DNA from: Acutalibacteraceae bacterium
GTDB taxonomy: Bacteria > Bacillota > Clostridia > Oscillospirales > Acutalibacteraceae
DNA length: 64,000 bases
Direction: 5' to 3'
Assembly: GCA_045616765.1 (NCBI GenBank)
Contig: JAZLHL010000012.1
Location: 1,756 to 65,755, forward strand
Shown here piece after piece: positions 1 to 62,977 of this stretch (its first letter is position 1; every line of letters begins with the position of its first letter). A program made the position numbers and the translations under genes. The notes below the pieces were generated by a model, which worked only from the letters and a program-made list of their open reading frames with translations, made no database searches and had not been told where the DNA came from.

Positions 1-774
1 CTTATTTAATATCCAATATTGGTCAGACCATGAACTTTCAAAATTTGCAACAAAAGCATTGTATCCGCTATCACTGTTTGTGGCAATAACAACATTTGAA
101 TTTGCCTTTGACCTTATGACATATACTCCTTCGGCTAAATCGGTTGTATACGGAATAGCAGGAATTGTTTGCGTATAAGTTTTACCGCAAGAGCAGGTTC
201 TGACTCTTGTCCCTGTGGCTGTTTTTGTTGGTGCTTTTGTGATCTTGGCAGAAGCTTTGAAATCACATGTGTGCGGGGACGAAACATAATGCCAACCGTT
301 ACTGAATGAATAACCGGTTCCCGATATTGAATTTGCACCTGTTATCGTATAATTCCATCCTATTCTGACTTTGGAATTATAATTGCCTTCGGCTACATAT
401 AAGCTGTTTCCGCTTCTCTTTAAAACCGCAAACCAGTGTCCGCCACCGTTTTCACCGCCGACGCTTATTACGTCTCCGGCTCTTATATCCCAAGCGCTTT
501 TAAAATTCTCGCCCGCCTTGGGACCTGATTTTCCAAAGCAGTAATATACAAAATCCGCACAATATGCACAGCATTGACTGCTTGACCATGATGACAGATA
601 AGGACTTCTGTCTCCCCAGCTCGCACCGTGCGTAAAACGGGAATCATTAATGAATGCGTCCATTTTTGCGTTTCCTGTTGATTCAAGCGCCGATGCACTG
701 ACGTCAATTATCCCAAACGGAATAAGCGAAAGAACGATTGTCAGTGAAAGTAATAAAGAAATCGCTTTTTTCAT
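1..774 (-). CDS. Secreted CHAP/NlpC-P60-like cysteine peptidase domain protein, C-terminus runs off the window start
   Basis: Absent from the ORF track because it has no stop in the window. Hand translation from ATG 774 (GGAGG upstream) gives a signal peptide MKKAISLLLSLTIVLSLIPFGIIDVSASA. It continues ...SSSQCCAYCADFVYYCFG...GGGHWFAVL (Cys...His peptidase-like). The tail has DQYW (ricin-type QxW-like). The frame is open to nt 1. Confidence 0.6.
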   Translation of the reverse strand, partial: MKKAISLLLSLTIVLSLIPFGIIDVSASALESTGNAKMDAFINDSRFTHGASWGDRSPYLSSWSSSQCCAYCADFVYYCFGKSGPKAGENFKSAWDIRAGDVISVGGENGGGHWFAVLKRSGNSLYVAEGNYNSKVRIGWNYTITGANSISGTGYSFSNGWHYVSSPHTCDFKASAKITKAPTKTATGTRVRTCSCGKTYTQTIPAIPYTTDLAEGVYVIRSKANSNVVIATNSDSGYNAFVANFESSWSDQYWILNK

Positions 775-2487: not shown

Positions 2488-3837
2488 TTAAACATTAAAC
2501 AGCTTGTTTATATCCGTCTGTGTCATTCCCTCAAAATCGGCGGCTGCAATACCGGCGAATGCATCCTGCACCACCGTGTCGGAAAAATCGTCGCAGAATG
2601 TATCGAGCGAAAACTCCTTTTCCTCGGAATTTTCCATATTTTTGAGCTTAACAATACCGCTTTCAAGCTCACTGTCGCCTATTACAACGGTATATGTCGC
2701 GCCGATTTTATTTGCATATTTCATCTGCGCTTTTATTGACCTGCCGACTGTATCAATGCTCACGCAGTAACCCTCTGCGCGAATTTCCGAAGAAAGCTCA
2801 AGCGCTTTGAGCATCGCCGCATCACCGGCGGTAACAATGGCAAGGTCGCATTTCGGAGCTTCGGGGAAAGCAACACCCGTTTCCTCCATAAGTATGAGCA
2901 GGCGTTCAAGTCCTATTGCGAAGCCGCAGGCGGGCATCGCGGCGCCGCCGAGCTCCTCAACAAGTCCGTCGTATCTGCCGCCGCCGCCTATTACAAGCCC
3001 TGCGGTCTTTTCATTTACGGAAACGAACTCGAACACGGTGCGGGTGTAATAGTCAAGTCCGCGCACTATCTGCGGGTTGACCTTGTACTCTATTCCGAGT
3101 GCCTCGAGGTATTTTTTAAGCTGCTCAAAATGCTCGCGGCAGTCATCGCAGATATAGTCAAGCACCACGGGTGCATCCTTTGCTATTTCGGAGCACACGG
3201 GGCTTTTGCAGTCGAGTATTCTCATGGGGTTGCGGTCGAGCCTTGAAAGGCAGGTTTCGCAAAGCTCATCTTTTTTATTGGCAAAATACTCTTTAAGGGC
3301 GGCGGAATACCTTGCACGGCACTCCGGGCAGCCTATTGAATTTATTTCAAGCACATAATCCGAAATGCCGAGGTAGTTGAAATAACTGTTTGCAAGAGCA
3401 ATTATTTCGGCATCCTGCAAAGCGGAAGCCGAGCCGAAGCACTCCACGCCGAACTGATGAAATTCCCTGAGCCTGCCCGCCTGAGGTTTTTCGTAACGGT
3501 AGCAGGATGTGAGGTAGCATATTTTCTGCGGAAGCGGCTCGTTGAAAAGGCCGTGCTCCAGGAATGCACGCACTGCGCCTGCGGTACCCTCGGGTCTGAG
3601 TGTTATCGAGCGGTCGCCCTTATCGTTGAATGTGTACATCTCTTTCTGCACAACATCGCTCGTTTCGCCTACCGAACGGTCAAAAAGCTCGGTGTATTCA
3701 AAAACGGGCGTGCGCATCTCGTGAAAGCCGTATGTGCCGGCAACCGAAAGTGCCGCCTGCTCAACATACTGCAGCTTGTGGCTTTCGGTCGGTAATGTAT
3801 CTTTTGTTCCTTTAATTGCTTTTACACTTATAGCCAT
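2488..3837 (-). CDS. hisS: Histidine--tRNA ligase
   Basis: The N-terminus is ...GTKDTLPTESHKLQYVE...MRTPVFEYTELF...LRPEGTAGAVRAF, the classical class II HisRS motifs. An AGGAGG RBS is present. Confidence 0.95.
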   Translation of the reverse strand: MAISVKAIKGTKDTLPTESHKLQYVEQAALSVAGTYGFHEMRTPVFEYTELFDRSVGETSDVVQKEMYTFNDKGDRSITLRPEGTAGAVRAFLEHGLFNEPLPQKICYLTSCYRYEKPQAGRLREFHQFGVECFGSASALQDAEIIALANSYFNYLGISDYVLEINSIGCPECRARYSAALKEYFANKKDELCETCLSRLDRNPMRILDCKSPVCSEIAKDAPVVLDYICDDCREHFEQLKKYLEALGIEYKVNPQIVRGLDYYTRTVFEFVSVNEKTAGLVIGGGGRYDGLVEELGGAAMPACGFAIGLERLLILMEETGVAFPEAPKCDLAIVTAGDAAMLKALELSSEIRAEGYCVSIDTVGRSIKAQMKYANKIGATYTVVIGDSELESGIVKLKNMENSEEKEFSLDTFCDDFSDTVVQDAFAGIAAADFEGMTQTDINKLFNV

Positions 3838-3898
3838 AATAGCCTCCTACATAACAGAAAAACGGGTGCGAGCTTCCCGCACCCGACTTAAAATATGA

Positions 3899-4303
3899 TC
3901 AGTTCTTCGGGTTCACAATATCGCGCCAGTCAAGGTCGCCGCGTTCAAGGCTGTGAATAAGCGCCTCGGCGGTGGCAATATTCGTGGCAACGGGGATATT
4001 GTGCACATCGCAAAGCCTTAACAGATTCGTTTCGTTGGGCTCGCCCGGCTTCGGGTCAAGCGGATCGCGGAAAAGAAGAAGCAGGTCGATTTCATCGCAG
4101 GCGATGCGGGAGCCGATTTGCTGGTCGCCGCCCTGCGAGCCGCTTAAATATTTATCTATTTCAAGACCGGTCGCTTCGGAAACGAGCTTGCCGGTGGTGC
4201 CCGTTGCACAAATGCTGTGCTTGCTTAAAATGCCGCAGTATGCTATGCAGAACTGAGTCATAAGCTCTTTTTTGGAATCGTGTGCTATCAACGCAATATT
4301 CAC
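3899..4303 (-). CDS. mgsA: Methylglyoxal synthase
   Basis: The 134-aa product begins IALIAHDSKKELM...ATGTTG... and has an MgsA-like C-terminus. GTG start with a GAGGGGG RBS. Confidence 0.95.
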   Translation of the reverse strand: MNIALIAHDSKKELMTQFCIAYCGILSKHSICATGTTGKLVSEATGLEIDKYLSGSQGGDQQIGSRIACDEIDLLLLFRDPLDPKPGEPNETNLLRLCDVHNIPVATNIATAEALIHSLERGDLDWRDIVNPKN

Positions 4304-5959: not shown

Positions 5960-6106
5960 AAACTCATCCCCCCATACTTTCATTATATTATGCAACATTT
6001 TCTGTGAATAATCAATGGGGTTTGAGTAAAAAAATGAGATATTTTTATGGAAAATGCGCTTTTTGCCGCAACGCAAAAAAATATTGAAAAAAATCGAAAA
6101 AAAGTG

Positions 6107-6337: not shown

Positions 6338-8605
6338 TCACACAAACTGTGAAATGGTATTCACAAGCTTGTTTATGTTTATGGGCTTTGAAATATGCGC
6401 ATCCATTCCGGCTTCAAGTGCCTTTTTCTTATCCTCATCAAAGGCGTTGGCGGTCATTGCAATTATCGGTATATGCACATTCTGCGGGTCGGGTATGGTG
6501 CGAATTTCACGCGTAGCCATATAGCCGTCCATAATCGGCATCTGAATATCCATAAGAATTAGGTCAAAATACTTCTCGCGCGAATGTATCATTTCGGTGC
6601 ATATTTCAACAGCCTTTGTACCGTCATCGGCTTCAACGATTTCCATACCGAATTCGCTTAAAATATCACAGGCAATTTCGCGGTTAAGCTCGTTATCCTC
6701 AACAAGCAGCACCTTTTTGCCGTTGAGTACCGATGCATCGGCTTTGGCGGCTTCTTCGGTCTTTGCGGTTACCTTGTCGGTAATTCTGAAATCAATGTAA
6801 ACCGTAAACTCCGAGCCCTCACCGAGCTTACTCTTAACATCTATTTTGCCGTGCATAAGGTCAATGAGCTGCTTGGTTATAGCCATACCGAGACCCGTAC
6901 CCTGAATACCCTTTGTGGATGCCGTCGTCTCGCGTGAGAAGGACTCAAATATGTGGCGCTGGAATTCCTCGCTCATACCGATGCCGTTGTCGGCAATTTT
7001 GAACATAAAGCTCGCACAACCCGGCTCCTTTGCGGGAAGCTCGCTTATGGTGTAAACCACCTTGCCGCCGGGGTTCGTGTACTTCATCGCATTGTTGAGA
7101 ATATTCATCATAATACGGTTAAGGCGCAATTCATCGGCAAGAATGTATCTGTGAGTTATTTTGTCGAAATTCCTTACGAACTCTATATTTTTCGCCGTTG
7201 AAGTAGGCTCGGCAATATCGCAGAGATTATGTGATGATTCGATAATATCAAGCGGCTGTTCATCTATTGTAACCTTGCCGCTTTCCACACGCGCCATATC
7301 AAGCACATCGTTTATCAGCGACAACAGATGCGTGCCGGATTTTTCAACATTTTCAAGGCAGTTTTCGGCTTTTTCGGAATCATCAATATGCTTTTTTGCC
7401 ATTGATGTATAGCCGATTATGGCATTCATCGGCGTGCGGATATCGTGGCTCATATTGAACAGGAACGATGTCTTCTGACGGTTTGCATAGTCTGCCGCTT
7501 CGCGCGCATTCTGCAATTCAAGCTCGCGCTGCTTTGCCCTTTCGCAATTCGCTATGCCGAGCACGACATTGCCCTGCTCCTCCTGAAACGCAAAATTAAA
7601 TCTGTACCATATCTTTTTATCCTTATCGCGAAGCTGAATATCAATATAAGGTGAGTGACCGTTTTTCATCTGCTGCATAAGCGGCTCACGCCTTGCCATT
7701 GCAATGAAATCGTCTATTTCATCCTCGGGGATGACTATGTGCATAATGGCATCGAAAGTGTGCGGATTAAGCGAGCCATCCGGTCCCACAAGGTTCGCAA
7801 ACTGCTTAAAGATACCCGCAATTTTATAAACCTTCATTTCATTTGTTTCGTTATCTATGTAGCAAACAAAGTCGTGCTTTGACGAAAGTATTGAAATAAT
7901 TTCGTAACTGCGGTATTCATCCTTGGTATCATCGTGGGATTTTTCGTAGACCTTGAAATACAAAATGATTGCCACTGATATAATGGAGCCGAAATATGTG
8001 AACGGAAGTCCCGGGGGAACAAGCATCTGAATCGTATTGAACACAAGCGACGGAATTATATAGAATATCTGCCAGAAATATTTTCTTTTCAGGAATTTGT
8101 CACTCGTTTTAAGGCAGGCAATTAGTGAAAGCAGGCAGCCCCACAAGCTGTAAATATATGTAATACCGGGATGCAGAAACTGAAACGCACCTCTGTAATA
8201 TTCGCCGTTTTCATCAAAGCCGAAAATAAGCCCCGTTTTAACGGATGTGAGCGCAATAAGGCTTGTAACTATTGTTATTGCAAGCACAAAACCCTCCACC
8301 CAGCGCGACGGCTTGAATTTTTCCGGCAGGGCTTTCAATATATACTTAAACCACAGCAGACCGATATATGTTGTGGCAAAAAAGTAAACCGAGTTGCTTA
8401 CTTTACTCAGAAACAGATACTGCTCTTTGCCGTTTATAAAGGGCCACACCGAGTCAAACAAGCACGAGCAAACGAGTATTATGAGTATTGCGGAAAGCGG
8501 ATCGAATCTGTTCATGGGCTTGACCTTTTTATTGGCAATAAAAAGACCTATGAGCAGCGCCGTACACATCAGCAGTGATTCAACATAAATTGCCAGTGAA
8601 TTCAT
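6338..8605 (-). CDS. Hybrid sensor histidine kinase / response regulator with a multi-TM N-terminal domain
   Basis: The H-box is FLFNMSHDIRTPMNAI. The N and G boxes are NILNNAMKYT and GTGLGMAI. The C-terminal receiver is KVLLVEDNELN...DLILMDIQMPIMDG. The N-terminal roughly 220 aa are hydrophobic. Confidence 0.9.
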   Translation of the reverse strand: MNSLAIYVESLLMCTALLIGLFIANKKVKPMNRFDPLSAILIILVCSCLFDSVWPFINGKEQYLFLSKVSNSVYFFATTYIGLLWFKYILKALPEKFKPSRWVEGFVLAITIVTSLIALTSVKTGLIFGFDENGEYYRGAFQFLHPGITYIYSLWGCLLSLIACLKTSDKFLKRKYFWQIFYIIPSLVFNTIQMLVPPGLPFTYFGSIISVAIILYFKVYEKSHDDTKDEYRSYEIISILSSKHDFVCYIDNETNEMKVYKIAGIFKQFANLVGPDGSLNPHTFDAIMHIVIPEDEIDDFIAMARREPLMQQMKNGHSPYIDIQLRDKDKKIWYRFNFAFQEEQGNVVLGIANCERAKQRELELQNAREAADYANRQKTSFLFNMSHDIRTPMNAIIGYTSMAKKHIDDSEKAENCLENVEKSGTHLLSLINDVLDMARVESGKVTIDEQPLDIIESSHNLCDIAEPTSTAKNIEFVRNFDKITHRYILADELRLNRIMMNILNNAMKYTNPGGKVVYTISELPAKEPGCASFMFKIADNGIGMSEEFQRHIFESFSRETTASTKGIQGTGLGMAITKQLIDLMHGKIDVKSKLGEGSEFTVYIDFRITDKVTAKTEEAAKADASVLNGKKVLLVEDNELNREIACDILSEFGMEIVEADDGTKAVEICTEMIHSREKYFDLILMDIQMPIMDGYMATREIRTIPDPQNVHIPIIAMTANAFDEDKKKALEAGMDAHISKPININKLVNTISQFV

Positions 8606-8914
8606 AAAACGCCCTCCTGATATTTTTTTAACAAATTAACCGTCAAAAAACGGCTGCCGTAAAAAACAGCAGCCGAAAAAAGCACATTATGTGCGCATTG
8701 TATAATAATTCGTATTATAGAAATACATCTTCATATGTACAACTCCCATTTGTTTCGCATAACGAAACGCATTAATATCATTATACCCTTTTAAATTTTA
8801 AATTCAATATGAATAGTTGTTAAAAATTTGTTCATTTCTTTATATATTTTACACAATGAATTGCACCGATTGTAGAAAACTTTTATGTAAAATTTGAACA
8901 ATGCCGCAAAGTTC

Positions 8915-8954
8915 GAAAAAAGCCGAGTGTCCTCAAAAACACTCGGCTTTTTAT
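8915..8954. terminator. Bidirectional intrinsic terminator (ends the PfkB-kinase operon)
   Basis: AAAAAA-AGCCGAGTGT-loop-ACACTCGGCT-TTTTAT. Confidence 0.8.
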
Positions 8955-8958
8955 TATT

Positions 8959-9070
8959 TAAACGGCGTTTCTGCGCTTTCCTCTTTTTTTAAAAAAAGAT
9001 GCAGAAGCGTCGTTCTTCGCCCGCAAGGCGTATATGGATACGTCAAGGGCGAAAACGGCGTTTCTGCGCT
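8959..9070. repeat. Small dispersed repeat element, family B (copy 1)
   Basis: AAACGGCGTTTCTGCGCTT occurs twice, at 8959-8977 and 9052-9070. The two copies flank an inverted GCAGAAGCGTCGTT. The same architecture is seen at 23393-23495. Confidence 0.6.
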
Positions 9071-59435: not shown

Positions 59436-60407
59436 CTAAATGCAGCAGTTTCTTTCAAAGTTTATTGCTTTTGATATATTCAGGTCGCTGTATTCCGTCT
59501 GCTTCGACCAGTATTTTATTACATCAATTATATCGCGCTCGCAAAGCCCGCCTTTTTCCGCGCGCTTCACATCGGCGCAAAGGGCGATATACCCCACCGC
59601 TTCGGCACAGAAGCAGGCACGCGCATAAATATCGCCGTCATAAAGTCCTGCGGTAAGGTAGCGGTAAAGTAAATACGAAAACACGAAGCGGAGCCACGGC
59701 TCATCGGTTTTGTTGAAGCCCTTACAGCTTTCGGCAAAAGCCGCAATTTTTTCGGCATAAGCACTCCAGTTATCATCTATCGGCTCCGTTGTTTTATAAA
59801 ATTCGGAAACATCTTTTGCGGTTTTGAGCGTACGGTCTTCGCCGCAGCAAAATTCACTGCTTTTGACCGCAGCAAGCACATTTTCAATACATTCGGCTAA
59901 AGCTTTGCTTTCATCCGATACGGTATTAAAAAGATTTTCACGAAAAGCGAAAAATGAATCGTAGATTTCGGCTTCTTCGTCTTCGGCTTCCCCGTTACCG
60001 TCAACCGCAAGCGAAAATTCGCCGCAGTTCAGAAGCAGTCTGCACGCTTCCTCGCAGCAAAGGCCGAGACCGCACTCGGTAACATCCGCCGCCCACTCAT
60101 AAAAGCGCGGATGCTCGCGGCAGATTTCGCACAGAAAGCCGCTGCCCGCTTCGGTGATAATATCGCAAAGATTATTTTCATTCAGAAAAGGGCATCTGCC
60201 GTCGGCGCGCATCTTAAAGCAGGGCGAGCCGTCTTCACTCACGGTCAACTCGCCGCGCAGCCTTTCACCGAGAGCACCGCTGTAAGCTGCGTATTTTTCG
60301 GCGGTGTCGCAGTCGACATCCACTTCCCAGCCGATGCAGCAGTTATCGGTGCATTTTTCGGCAATACATTTGAATTTGTCAAAAAAATCGGGTTTTACGG
60401 TTCTCAT
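59436..60407 (-). CDS. FliB-family Cys-rich protein (family annotated as flagellin lysine-N-methylase)
   Basis: The N-terminus is KPDFFDKFKCIAEKCTDNCCIGWEVDVD...GRCPFLNENNLCDI. The family assignment is from memory of similar sequences. Confidence 0.6.
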   Translation of the reverse strand: MRTVKPDFFDKFKCIAEKCTDNCCIGWEVDVDCDTAEKYAAYSGALGERLRGELTVSEDGSPCFKMRADGRCPFLNENNLCDIITEAGSGFLCEICREHPRFYEWAADVTECGLGLCCEEACRLLLNCGEFSLAVDGNGEAEDEEAEIYDSFFAFRENLFNTVSDESKALAECIENVLAAVKSSEFCCGEDRTLKTAKDVSEFYKTTEPIDDNWSAYAEKIAAFAESCKGFNKTDEPWLRFVFSYLLYRYLTAGLYDGDIYARACFCAEAVGYIALCADVKRAEKGGLCERDIIDVIKYWSKQTEYSDLNISKAINFERNCCI

Positions 60408-60408
60408 A

Positions 60409-61098
60409 TCATTCCACCGCGGTAACGGTCAGCACACCACCGTTGACCTTAAATTTGATTTCGATGCCGCCGAAGGTCATACCGTACTCTCGCTGCGCAT
60501 CACTCTGGTATGAGGGGCGCGGGTCGAGCGCAAGCGATTCCGAAAGCGCACCGCGCTTTCCGGGCGGCACTTTTTCGTAAAGTCCGTCGGCAAACACAAC
60601 TTCAAGACGGTAATTTTTATGTTCCTCGGCAAAACCGCCGAGAGCATCGGGTATGCTGTCAACATACGGCAGATACGGCTTGACATCGTAAACGGGCGTG
60701 CTGTTTTTCAAATCGGCGCCGCTGACGAAAAGCACCGTTCCGTTTTCACCGTCGGGCGCAATTCTTTCAAGCTTAACGCAGGAAAGCCCTATGGGGTTCG
60801 GTCTGTTCGGCGAGCGTGTTGCGAAAACGCCCACCCTTTCGTTGCCGCCGAGGCGCGGCGGCCTTACCGTAGGCGACCAGCCGTCCGACTGCGGATTTTC
60901 GGAAAAGCCCCACAGAAGCCACAGGTGCGAATACTGCTCAATTCCGCGCAAGGCGTTACTGTCGCGGTATTTTTCGCAGAACACGATTTTCGACACCTCG
61001 GACGGAGCAAGCCCGCTCTGGCGCGGCACGCCGAATTTGGTGCCGTAATCGTTATAGATTACCGCAATCTGTTCAATTTTCATTTCAGCGTTATCCAT
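60409..61098 (-). CDS. trmO: tRNA (t6A37-N6)-methyltransferase TrmO (TsaA family)
   Basis: ...YGTKFGVPRQSGL...FATRSPNRPNPIGLS... is the TsaA-like beta-barrel signature. ATG 61098 follows a GGGGTG RBS. Confidence 0.85.
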   Translation of the reverse strand: MDNAEMKIEQIAVIYNDYGTKFGVPRQSGLAPSEVSKIVFCEKYRDSNALRGIEQYSHLWLLWGFSENPQSDGWSPTVRPPRLGGNERVGVFATRSPNRPNPIGLSCVKLERIAPDGENGTVLFVSGADLKNSTPVYDVKPYLPYVDSIPDALGGFAEEHKNYRLEVVFADGLYEKVPPGKRGALSESLALDPRPSYQSDAQREYGMTFGGIEIKFKVNGGVLTVTAVE

Positions 61099-61195
61099 AA
61101 ACACACCCCGGATTCGGTATGATTTAATTATTCAATTATTAAAGCAGTAATGAAACAAATTCGATTTGTCGGTGTTTTTATTATATCGCCTTTTA

Positions 61196-61224
61196 TTGAC
61201 AAGAAACGGCGTATATGATAATAT
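61196..61224 (+). promoter_or_regulatory. SigA-type promoter of the small hydrophobic peptide transcript
   Basis: TTGACA (61196-61201), a 17-nt spacer, then TGaTAATAT with the -10 at 61219-61224. Confidence 0.65.
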
Positions 61225-61330
61225 TTCATCGGTACACAAAGTACCCTGAAAGGTGACTATATTCGGTAGGCGGTTAGCCCTCTATTAAGGAGGGCAAAAC
61301 ACTTTTCGCCCTCGGAAAGGGGGCGGTGCA

Positions 61331-61420
61331 ATGGTTACATACGAAGCATTATTCTTATTACTTGCTTTAATTGTGTCAGTGATTGCACTTGTTGTCGATA
61401 TAACAACAAAAAAGAAATAA
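61331..61420 (+). CDS. 29-aa hydrophobic peptide, candidate type I toxin (holin-like toxin / Fst-TxpA-like class)
   Basis: The product is MVTYEALFLLLALIVSVIALVVDITTKKK, one TM helix with a lysine tail. The RBS AAAGGGGGCGG is sequestered in the hairpin CGCCCTC...GGGGGCG. The 5' UTR is about 100 nt and structured. Confidence 0.6.
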   Translation: MVTYEALFLLLALIVSVIALVVDITTKKK

Positions 61421-61490
61421 ACCGCCCGGGCTAATGGTGCGGTTTATTTCTAAACCAAACTCAGGCTAACCGTCTATCGGTCACCTTTCT
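61405..61490 (-). ncRNA. Candidate antisense sRNA (antitoxin) convergent with the toxin mRNA
   Basis: The minus-strand promoter is TTGACA (61524-61519), a 16-nt spacer, then TGcTATAAT (61502-61497). The terminator has a 12-bp stem GAAATAAACCGC / GCGGTTTATTTC followed by CTTTTTTG on the minus strand. The RNA overlaps the last about 16 nt of the ORF and its 3' region. Confidence 0.45.
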
Positions 61491-61576
61491 GTTTTCATTA
61501 TAGCATATCTTCGCAGTTTGTCAACCGAGTTAAAAATAAATTTTTATGCCTTTAAAGTCCGTTAACAACCGAAAAC

Positions 61577-62977
61577 TTAAAACTTCACTCTGTCCTCAAT
61601 ATACTTTTCAAGCTCTGCGATCGGGATCCTTACCTGCTCCATGGAGTCTCTTTCACGGACTGTTACGCAGTTGTCGGCAGGAGTATTCTCGTCGCCTACG
61701 GTTTCAAAGTCAACGGTAATGCAGAACGGTGTGCCGATTTCATCCTGACGGCGATAGCGTTTGCCTATTGAGCCTGCATCATCGTAATCCACAAAGAATT
61801 TCTTTGAAAGCTCTGCGTAGATTTCATTTGCCTTGTCGCCGAGTTTCTTTGAAAGCGGCAGAACTGCGCACTTGTAGGGTGCAAGGGCTGGATGAAGTCT
61901 TAACACAACTCTCGTGTCATTCTTTGCCTCGTCAACGACTTCCTCATCATAAGCCTCGGTAAGTACGGTCAGGAAAAGTCTTTCAACGCCGAGTGACGGC
62001 TCAACAACATAGGGAACATATCTTTCGTTTGTTTCCGGGTCAAAGTAGTCAAGGCTCTTACCGGAGGTGTTGATGTGCTGAGTAAGGTCGTAGTCGGTTC
62101 TGTCGGCAACGCCCCAAAGCTCGCCCCAGCCGAACGGGAAAAGGTACTCGAAGTCGGTGGTAGCCTTTGAATAGAAGCAAAGCTCCTCTTTATCGTGGTC
62201 GCGCAGTCTGAGGTTTTCCTCCTTGATGCCGAGTGAATACAGCCAGTCGCGGCAGAATGCACGCCAATACTCAAACCATTCAAGGTCGGTGCCGGGCTTG
62301 CAGAAAAACTCAAGCTCCATCTGCTCAAATTCGCGAACGCGGAAAATGAAGTTGCCGGGAGTGATCTCGTTACGGAAGGATTTGCCGACCTGCGCAACGC
62401 CGAACGGCACTTTTCTTCTTGTGGTTCTCTGAATATTTGCAAAGTTCACGAAGATGCCCTGTGCGGTTTCGGGGCGCAGGTAGAGCTCGTTTTTGGAGTC
62501 CTCGGTAACACCCTGGAAGGTTTTGAACATAAGGTTAAACTGTCTTATATCGGTAAAATTGTGCTTGCCGCACTCGGGGCAGGGAATGTTCTTTTCCTTG
62601 ATGTAGTTCATCATCTGCTCATTTGACCAGCCTGCAACATTTGTGCCGTCAAAATCTTCTATGAGATTATCGGCTCTGTGGCGCGTTTTGCACTCGCGGC
62701 AGTCCATAAGCGGATCGGAGAAGCCGCCGAGATGACCCGAAGCCACCCATGTCTGCGGATTCATAAGGATTGCACTGTCAAGACCGACATTATAGGGATT
62801 TTCCTGAATAAATTTCTTTCTCCACGCGTTTTTGATGTTGTTTTTAAGCTCAACACCGAGGGGACCGTAATCCCATGTGTTGGCGAGACCGCCGTAGATT
62901 TCACTGCCTGCGTACACGAAGCCTCTGCCCTTGCAGAGAGCAACGAGTTTTTCCATGGATTTTTCTGTGTTTTTCAT
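61577..62977 (-). CDS. glyQS: Glycine--tRNA ligase (dimeric GlyQS type)
   Basis: The product contains ...[41 protein letters not shown] and class II motifs. Confidence 0.95.

Follow-up and report, generated by a model that had tools for sequence, protein, structure and literature searches.

The window analysed here—64,000 nucleotides of a contig from an Acutalibacteraceae bacterium—contains a 472-bp spacer (61105–61576) between two genes that both lie on the minus strand: glyQS (61577–62977) and a gene for a TrmO-family tRNA methyltransferase (60409–61104), recognised from the Pfam TrmO_N and TrmO_C matches of its homologues. This spacer houses a cassette of approximately 350 bases, which is probably a compact, divergent type I toxin–antitoxin module of the bsrG/SR4 type (TxpA/BsrG, Hol_Tox). 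An earlier reading of the letters alone (hereafter, the original prediction) had proposed a type I locus at this site, with a small hydrophobic peptide, a sequestered ribosome-binding site and a convergent small RNA; all the elements it named are present in the sequence, and its main points are borne out by comparison with homologues and by the literature.

Two facing promoters frame the cassette. The predicted toxin promoter (61196–61224, plus strand) consists of TTGACA (61196–61201), a 17-nt spacer, the TG of an extended −10 element (61216–61217) and TAATAT (61219–61224), scoring 10/12 against consensus, and the putative antitoxin promoter (61497–61524, minus strand) consists of TTGACA (61524–61519), a 16-nt spacer and TGcTATAAT ending at 61497, scoring 12/12. 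Both lie exactly where the original prediction had placed them, as near-consensus and consensus promoters, respectively. A promoter scan returned seven promoter-like sites, compared to 1.8 ± 1.6 in shuffled sequences. The candidate toxin open reading frame (ORF; 61331–61420, plus strand), also called correctly at the outset, encodes a peptide of 29 aa (MVTYEALFLLLALIVSVIALVVDITTKKK) with one hydrophobic helix and a KKK C-terminus.

The toxin mRNA is predicted to span 61231–61495 on the plus strand, with a 5′ end placed from the promoter and the remainder from its folds and from analogy with bsrG mRNA; its 3′ end would fall near 61452 if the hairpin at the stop codon terminates transcription or near 61495 if transcription reads through. 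At its predicted start stands hairpin H1 (GGUAC-ACAAA-GUACC, 61231–61245, plus strand), which shows compensatory changes in relatives (GGUGC/GCACC, GAUGC/GCAUC) and is absent from more distant cassettes, where the mRNA begins directly at the left arm described below. Further into the predicted 5′ untranslated region (UTR), hairpin H2 (GCCCUCU-AUUAA-GGAGGGC, 61277–61295, plus strand; repeats I9 and I10) retains its stem, with changes, in relatives, and its 3′ strand can alternatively pair with 61304–61313. The Shine–Dalgarno (SD) sequence (approximately 61314–61323, 7 nt upstream of the ATG) is predicted to be held in a third hairpin (CGCCCUC-GGAAA-GGGGGCG, 61307–61325, plus strand), in which 61307–61313 form 7 bp with 61319–61325, bearing out the pairing with CGCCCTC in the original prediction. 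This stem is invariant across 15 aligned loci and, in a cassette from a prophage-like contig (L043), gives way to a stem of other sequence in which anti-SD and SD are still fully paired (CCUCCUCC/GGAGGAGG). Scored against dinucleotide shuffles, fold stability gave z = −6.7 for an mRNA ending at the stop-codon hairpin and z = −11.8 for one extended through the right arm.

The stop-codon hairpin (61413–61451; repeat I2, arms 61413–61425 and 61439–61451, complementary at 13/13 positions) has the TAA stop (61418–61420) inside its 5′ arm and doubles as the candidate antisense terminator: on the minus strand, and on that one only, its 13-bp stem, previously given as 12 bp, is followed by the U-run TTTTTTGTTG, which is encoded by the lysine codons of the toxin. 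Four compensatory pairs occur in the stem across loci, and the 9 nt beyond the full stem contain 5–8 T on the minus strand and 0–5 (mostly 0–3) on the plus. A YUNR U-turn in the hairpin loop was considered and not used, being present in the window (CUAA) and lacking in a related cassette (L027), whose loop contains no U. The antisense RNA is predicted to run for about 90 nt on the minus strand (61400–61490; ends placed from the promoter and the U-run), with a 5′ stem-loop, a spacer and the terminator, and it is complementary to the last 5–7 codons of the ORF, the hairpin and the right arm. Its fold scored z = −3.8, and an Rfam scan of the antisense strand matched no family.

The remaining element is an inverted repeat that encloses the ORF and the stop-codon hairpin. 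The left arm (61248–61279, plus strand; repeats I1 and I7) is made up of GAAAGGUGAC, a UAUAUU bulge and CGGUAGGCGGUUAGCC; the right arm (61464–61489, plus strand) is the segment whose complement forms the 5′ stem-loop of the antisense RNA and so lies within the region of the candidate small RNA, as had been proposed. The outer parts (61248–61257 and 61480–61489) match at 10/10 positions and the inner parts (61264–61279 and 61464–61479) at 14/16, which together gives about 26 bp, two of them G-U pairs, interrupted by a 6-nt bulge. The original prediction had found a real repeat but, at 22 bp, had made it slightly too short. As the repeat is inverted in the DNA, the 5′ end of the antisense RNA has the same sense as the 5′ arm of the mRNA (GAAAGGUGAC...CGGUUAGCC) and is not complementary to it.

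Around twenty homologues of the cassette were found in Acutalibacteraceae, Oscillospiraceae and Lachnospiraceae metagenome-assembled genomes (MAGs), in metagenomes and on one prophage-like contig, occupying unrelated genomic contexts and sometimes forming tandem arrays. For protein searches the peptide was lengthened in-frame to 43 aa or 32 aa, which gave three and six matches, respectively, called homologues being few; the 43-aa search turned up two near relatives. The cassette of L016/L027 (Acutalibacteraceae MAG) can be aligned from the plus-strand −35 to just beyond the minus-strand −35, within a completely different gene context. Scanning a genome collection with a UTR pattern yielded ten true loci, from Acutalibacteraceae, Oscillospiraceae, ‘Eubacteriales’ and Lachnospiraceae MAGs, along with two chance matches, and scanning metagenomes with a pattern for the SD hairpin only yielded seven true loci, six of them more divergent than those from the genome scan, plus an eighth that duplicated L020. 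One viral-contig pattern scan recovered the single cassette on L043 (IMG/VR, prophage-like contig; 3763–4070), 4 kb away from a phage integrase gene (7835–9001); two other viral-contig pattern scans gave chance matches or none, and BLASTN and TBLASTN searches of phage and plasmid collections found no relative. The original prediction had raised the matter of paralogous copies: none was found within the 64-kb window, the homologues all lying elsewhere.

Some of these homologues are repeated. L019 (3–1181) carries a head-to-tail array of 3.4 copies with a period of 343 nt, L017 (7130–7674) carries two neighbouring copies, and two copies on one contig also occur; in the L019 and L017 arrays, the antisense promoter of one unit adjoins, back to back, the toxin promoter of the following unit. 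One L017 segment (7125–7495) is a mosaic, with hairpin, loop and spacer identical to the window (61180–61550) and an ORF matching that of L027 with zero synonymous differences, which suggests recombination between cassette copies. Others are absent or decayed. In the closest relative of the window region (L015; flanking genes 87–92% identical by BLASTN against the window), 92 unrelated nucleotides (649–740) stand in place of 454 bases of the window (61109–61562), the spacer cannot be aligned, and neither a target-site duplication nor a clean insertion boundary was seen. The toxin ORF is disrupted in L041 by a 164-nt insertion after codon 11 (1088–1251) resembling a miniature inverted-repeat transposable element, with 35-nt terminal inverted repeats (89%), and in L033 (~6000–6090) by an insertion of about 90 nt close to its 3′ end; in L031 (~2860–2900) its stop codon is lost. 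The arms are retained in L031 and L033, and the stretch of L041 examined ends before the right arm. Such a patchy, multi-copy, tandem and present/absent distribution fits the description of type I loci by Fozo et al. (PMC2887945).

Comparison of the homologues shows a real conserved genetic module rather than a chance arrangement. The plus-strand −35 is kept; of the two −10 elements, the one on the plus strand is usually the weaker. On the minus strand the promoter is near-consensus in relatives (TTGACA-16/18-TATAAT in most loci), and every complete locus has it close to the right arm, at a constant spacing. Neither this promoter nor the right arm featured in any search pattern, yet both are always present, and the antisense promoter, 5′ arm and terminator occur in every complete locus, including those recovered with the SD-hairpin pattern. 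At the level of sequence, these cassettes thus carry the antisense RNA gene that defines a type I system, in keeping with the convergent small RNA of about 85 nt first envisaged; the ORF, whose conservation had likewise been singled out, is also kept. Against L027, divergence is 4–6% of sites in the arms, 4% in the rest of the 5′ UTR and 0% in the hairpin stems, compared to 29% in the ORF, 46% in the hairpin loop and 27–38% in the flanks, indicating that the non-coding parts are far more constrained than the ORF at this distance. Within the ORF, pS is 0.72 (synonymous sites near saturation) and pN 0.13, the pattern of a protein-coding sequence under purifying selection.

The peptide also has a recognisable family. 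The window copy matches Pfam Hol_Tox (PF16935) at 20.5 bits (E = 4.4e-4), below the gathering cut-off of 23.3 bits. Among 14 aligned variant peptides of the cassette family, ten match at E up to 1 (best 8.7e-5), and the cut-off is passed by the L043 peptide (MVTYEALFSFCIVIISIIALFQGKKK; 26.4 bits) and by BsrG (34.5 bits; the sequence scored agrees 100% with SPbeta). Since these two pass where the window copy fails, the latter is best described as a sub-threshold Hol_Tox relative that its cassette homologues tie to the family. It is the toxins of the TxpA family that are annotated as ‘holin-like toxins’ (Fozo et al., PMC2887945), the type to which the original prediction had likened the peptide. 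At the RNA level, the Rfam BsrG model (RF01412) matches 61306–61413 at 33.4 bits (E = 4.5e-6; model positions 35–145; gathering cut-off 55 bits), in an alignment that spans the ORF and the SD stem, the SD hairpin of the window aligning with that of the model. The best relative, L024, scores 38.3 bits, also below the cut-off, and aligns end to end (positions 1–259), outer helix included.

In the mRNA of bsrG, structure probing has shown that nt 1–35 pair with nt 232–262 to form a long helix, P1 (Jahn and Brantl 2013, PMC3834814), and the arms of the cassette vary as expected of an equivalent helix. The inner 16-bp helix is predicted by RNAalifold and is 97.5% paired over 15 loci, with three compensatory and seven one-sided (G-C to G-U) pairs; slid partners pair at merely 33–52%. 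The covariation score of the whole structure (inner helix with the SD and stop-codon hairpins) was reached by 0/500 shuffles. The outer arm, assessed by duplex energies, occurs as lineage variants (GGUGAC, GGUAAC, GGCAAC, GGCAGC, GGCAGUCGU, GCGUUGCCG, GGCGCUGCC, GGUGCUACC) that agree between both arms within each locus: cognate duplexes average −17.6 kcal/mol, compared to −9.7 ± 4.7 between classes, and a permutation test on nine class representatives gave 0/20000. In sequence terms, these are the properties of a P1-type helix, which would form only if the mRNA reaches 61489; this is the fold-back clamp that the original prediction had made conditional on read-through.

The core of the arms, GGUUAGCC (61272–61279 and 61464–61471), is nearly invariant and self-complementary if G-U pairs are allowed; in L039 it is a perfect palindrome (GGCUAGCC), and in L036, L040 and L030 the self-complementarity is lost. 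Two same-sense arms could in principle ‘kiss’ through this core. In the window, a candidate pairing in trans between the antisense 5′ arm and the mRNA 5′ UTR (GGUUAGCC with itself, GAUAGA with UCUAUU, GAAAGGUG with CACUUUUC) reaches −25.5 kcal/mol, which about 5% of shuffles equal; we rejected it as a family feature because the partner segments are not conserved in distant cassettes.

For bsrG, the same probing study found a short stem around the SD and located the stop codon on the 5′ side of stem-loop SL3; it showed that the complementarity of SR4 covers SL3, SL4 and the 3′ half of P1, that the SR4 terminator loop makes the first contact with bsrG loop 3, that binding frees the 5′ strand of P1 and lets the SD stem grow from 4 to 8 bp, and that an SR4 fragment of nt 111–180 is fully active (PMC3834814). 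A corresponding mechanism can be proposed for the cassette. The moderately strong plus promoter would produce an mRNA for a 29-aa membrane peptide, with the SD held in its 7-bp hairpin; this mRNA would read through the stop-codon hairpin to the right arm, and its 5′ and 3′ arms would form the helix of about 26 bp (the P1 analogue), closing the whole mRNA and keeping it stable and poorly translated. The consensus convergent promoter would yield the antisense RNA, about 90 nt long, in which the terminator would be complementary to the stop-codon hairpin and the 5′ stem-loop to the P1 3′ strand. By analogy with SR4, first contact would be made loop to loop at the two complementary hairpins, and pairing would then spread to a duplex of about 90 bp, displacing the mRNA’s own 5′ arm; RNase III would cut this duplex and the freed 5′ region would refold with the SD hairpin intact. 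The peptide, judged by its characterised relatives, is probably self-poisoning.

The evidence for this model is homology, an ORF under selection, a terminator and two promoters that are conserved, and arms that covary; both transcripts, the read-through, the pairing pathway, the dependence on RNase III and the toxicity we infer. Several points weigh against it. For every member the type I assignment is drawn from sequence, and the window copy falls short of the curated cut-offs of both Hol_Tox and Rfam BsrG. No SL4-like separate mRNA terminator was found in the window downstream of the right arm, and alignment to the SL4 columns of the Rfam model is poor, with many non-pairs; in every locus the right arm is followed by a U-rich run and then the antisense promoter. 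Each arm also folds as a local hairpin, several changes fitting both the local fold and the long helix; four arm differences fit minus-strand pairing only; and, the loci being related, the covariation counts are of non-independent events. Above all, on the plus strand the GC core of the stop-codon hairpin is followed by U-rich UUUAUUUCU, which means that the mRNA could stop at the hairpin and never contain the right arm. That some or all of the mRNA could end in this way is the point on which the model is least certain, and the chief rival builds on it.

According to this rival, the locus is a type I pair without fold-back: both RNAs would end at one and the same bidirectional terminator, with an overlap of no more than about 50 nt, and the arms would be homologous 5′ stem-loops derived from inverted duplication of a promoter–leader, each protecting the 5′ end of its own RNA or binding a common factor; template switching or gene conversion from one inverted repeat to the other would keep them alike. 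Symmetric A-tract/U-tract hairpins commonly terminate in both directions, as UUUAUUUCU would allow here, and the local folding of each arm, the mRNAs that begin directly at the arm in several loci, a match of the minus-strand half of the cassette profile to the plus promoter–arm region in reverse (E ~5e-4) and changes that are also compensatory inside local hairpins (L039) all suit such an origin. However, arm differences mostly preserve pairing on the plus strand: 137/142 cells pair there compared to 119/142 on the minus strand, 22 pairing on the plus only and 4 on the minus only. The two G-U positions and a bulge of 5–7 nt have escaped homogenisation in nearly all loci, an argument against gene conversion. 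Covariation also stops at the transcribed arms, the untranscribed promoter spacers beside them showing no within-locus similarity (p = 0.31), a result on which concerted evolution of whole promoter–arm modules was also rejected; and the equivalent strands pair in the probed homologue bsrG (PMC3834814). On the strand counts, the persistent G-U pairs and bulge, and the dissimilar spacers, the arms speak for a plus-strand RNA helix over DNA-level homogenisation, and we hold a pair without fold-back to be unlikely.

We give about as little credence to a variant of the fold-back model itself, in which the toxin mRNA lacks its own terminator: the closing helix together with the conserved U-rich run would end transcription, the message would be born locked, and the antitoxin would be a same-sense mimic of the 5′ arm that invades the lock. 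Were this doubtful variant true, the antitoxin gene would have arisen by inverted duplication of the toxin promoter–leader, a general route to new type I antitoxins.

Decidedly less probable is that the cassette comprises a conserved gene for a small membrane protein and a cis-antisense regulator, with no toxin–antitoxin system at all: the peptide would be non-lethal and the antisense RNA would tune its level. Some observations are in its favour—YhzE-2 of B. subtilis, a predicted type I toxin, does no damage when overproduced (PMC2887945), and BsrG leaves the membrane unpermeabilised (PMC8309996)—and the window copy sits between housekeeping genes. Nevertheless, the family members tested (BsrG, TxpA and EF3263) are toxic on overexpression, the cassette is patchy, multi-copy, present or absent between relatives and found once on a prophage-like contig, its ORF is disrupted in several copies, and translation would be heavily blocked by structure. 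Least credible of all, and already disfavoured, is a miniature mobile element with the inverted repeats as its termini and the ORF and promoters as passengers, for although the cassette is an indel relative to L015 and occurs at many unrelated sites and in tandem, conservation runs 50–85 nt past both arms, promoters included, making the repeats internal rather than terminal, no target-site duplication or clean boundary separates the window from L015, the ORF is under purifying selection and the arm imperfections are conserved as G-U pairs.

Some features of the surroundings deserve record. Between 61576 and 61413 (minus strand), the glyQS gene of the window lacks a terminator of its own, the first one downstream on its strand being that of the antisense RNA, and read-through would therefore put antitoxin sequence at the 3′ end of the glyQS transcript; the 92-nt spacer after glyQS in L015 carries its own hairpin and T-run. 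The trmO gene has no clear promoter except for a lone TATAAT (61187–61182, minus strand). A cysteine-rich ORF of 323 aa (59436–60407, minus strand) between trmO and a HAD hydrolase gene is missing from L015, representing a second indel no more than 2 kb from the cassette. In L018, positions 1–68 (plus strand), some 1.9 kb from the cassette, match the Rfam Gut-1 RNA (RF01706) at 48.1 bits (cut-off 50), the match being clipped by the end of the locus.

A 2019 review noted that searches for known type I toxins had yielded almost none in Clostridia (PMC6563280). If the fold-back model is right, this cassette family carries the bsrG/SR4 design into uncultured gut Oscillospirales and Lachnospiraceae, and the parts that would survive across that distance are the sequestered SD, the stop-codon hairpin that is also the antitoxin terminator, the 5′–3′ closing helix and an antitoxin with complementarity to the 3′ strand of that helix. 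It is also a natural minimal version, its antisense RNA measuring about 90 nt, and as such could help to dissect or re-use the regulatory design; for annotation, it accounts for a 450-bp ‘empty’ spacer and a 29-aa ORF. It is nonetheless a familiar kind of system and reveals no new principle.

Among known systems, par of pAD1 (fst RNAI/RNAII) resembles the cassette in its convergent RNAs, shared bidirectional terminator hairpin and repeats near both 5′ ends. The par repeats, however, are direct in the DNA, giving complementary 5′ regions that pair in trans, whereas those of the cassette are inverted, giving same-sense 5′ regions that cannot pair in that manner. Resemblance to hok/Sok, which the original prediction had also invoked, is an analogy of working only: there too a 5′–3′ helix locks the full-length toxin mRNA inert, as a long-distance 5′–3′ interaction does in aapA1/IsoA1. 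Neither system shows homology to the cassette, and Pfam and Rfam scans returned no Hok or Sok match. In both, the target of the antisense RNA is the 5′ leader or the processed mRNA, and 3′ trimming is needed for activation, whereas the antisense RNA of the cassette is situated at the 3′ end, with complementarity to the lock’s own 3′ strand.

The likenesses to BsrG/SR4 and TxpA/RatA drawn in the original prediction have fared better. In txpA/RatA of the B. subtilis skin element, the toxin belongs to the same superfamily, as does that of the EF3263/RatA-like pair of E. faecalis (PMC2887945). The antisense RNA, about 100 nt in length, is convergent and extends across the toxin 3′ end, as in the cassette, and the SD is enclosed in a stem; decay is RNase III-dependent, a further likeness to the model proposed here. 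The TxpA peptide is longer, at 59 aa. The cassette has no detectable match to the RatA model in an Rfam scan, and no SD refolding upon antitoxin binding has been reported for txpA.

It is bsrG/SR4 of the B. subtilis prophage SPbeta whose plan the cassette follows most fully. Both peptides start with M-x-x-Y-E and have one hydrophobic helix and a lysine-rich end; both SDs lie within a short GC stem (CCCU..GAAAGGGG); in both, a long helix can join the 5′ end of the mRNA to a segment downstream of the ORF, and RNAfold recovers P1 from the SPbeta sequence by the same folding method as was applied to the window. Each stop codon falls on the 5′ side of a hairpin that has the antitoxin terminator as its complement, and in SPbeta, as in the window, the lysine codons before the stop supply the U-run on the opposite strand. 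In each case a convergent antitoxin extends across the toxin 3′ end, and its complementarity takes in the 3′ strand of the long helix. The cassette differs in its shorter peptide (29 aa compared to 38 aa), its longer SD stem (7 bp compared to 4 bp), its hosts (uncultured Clostridia, with most copies outside prophages) and its shorter antisense RNA (about 90 nt compared to 183 nt), which corresponds to SR4 nt 111–180 and lacks equivalents of SL1 and SL2. Because of the bsrG probing, the recovery of P1 by RNAfold and the end-to-end Rfam alignment of L024, we assign the parts by analogy: the arms are the counterpart of P1, the 13-bp hairpin that of SL3 and the antitoxin terminator, and the antisense RNA that of the minimal active part of SR4.

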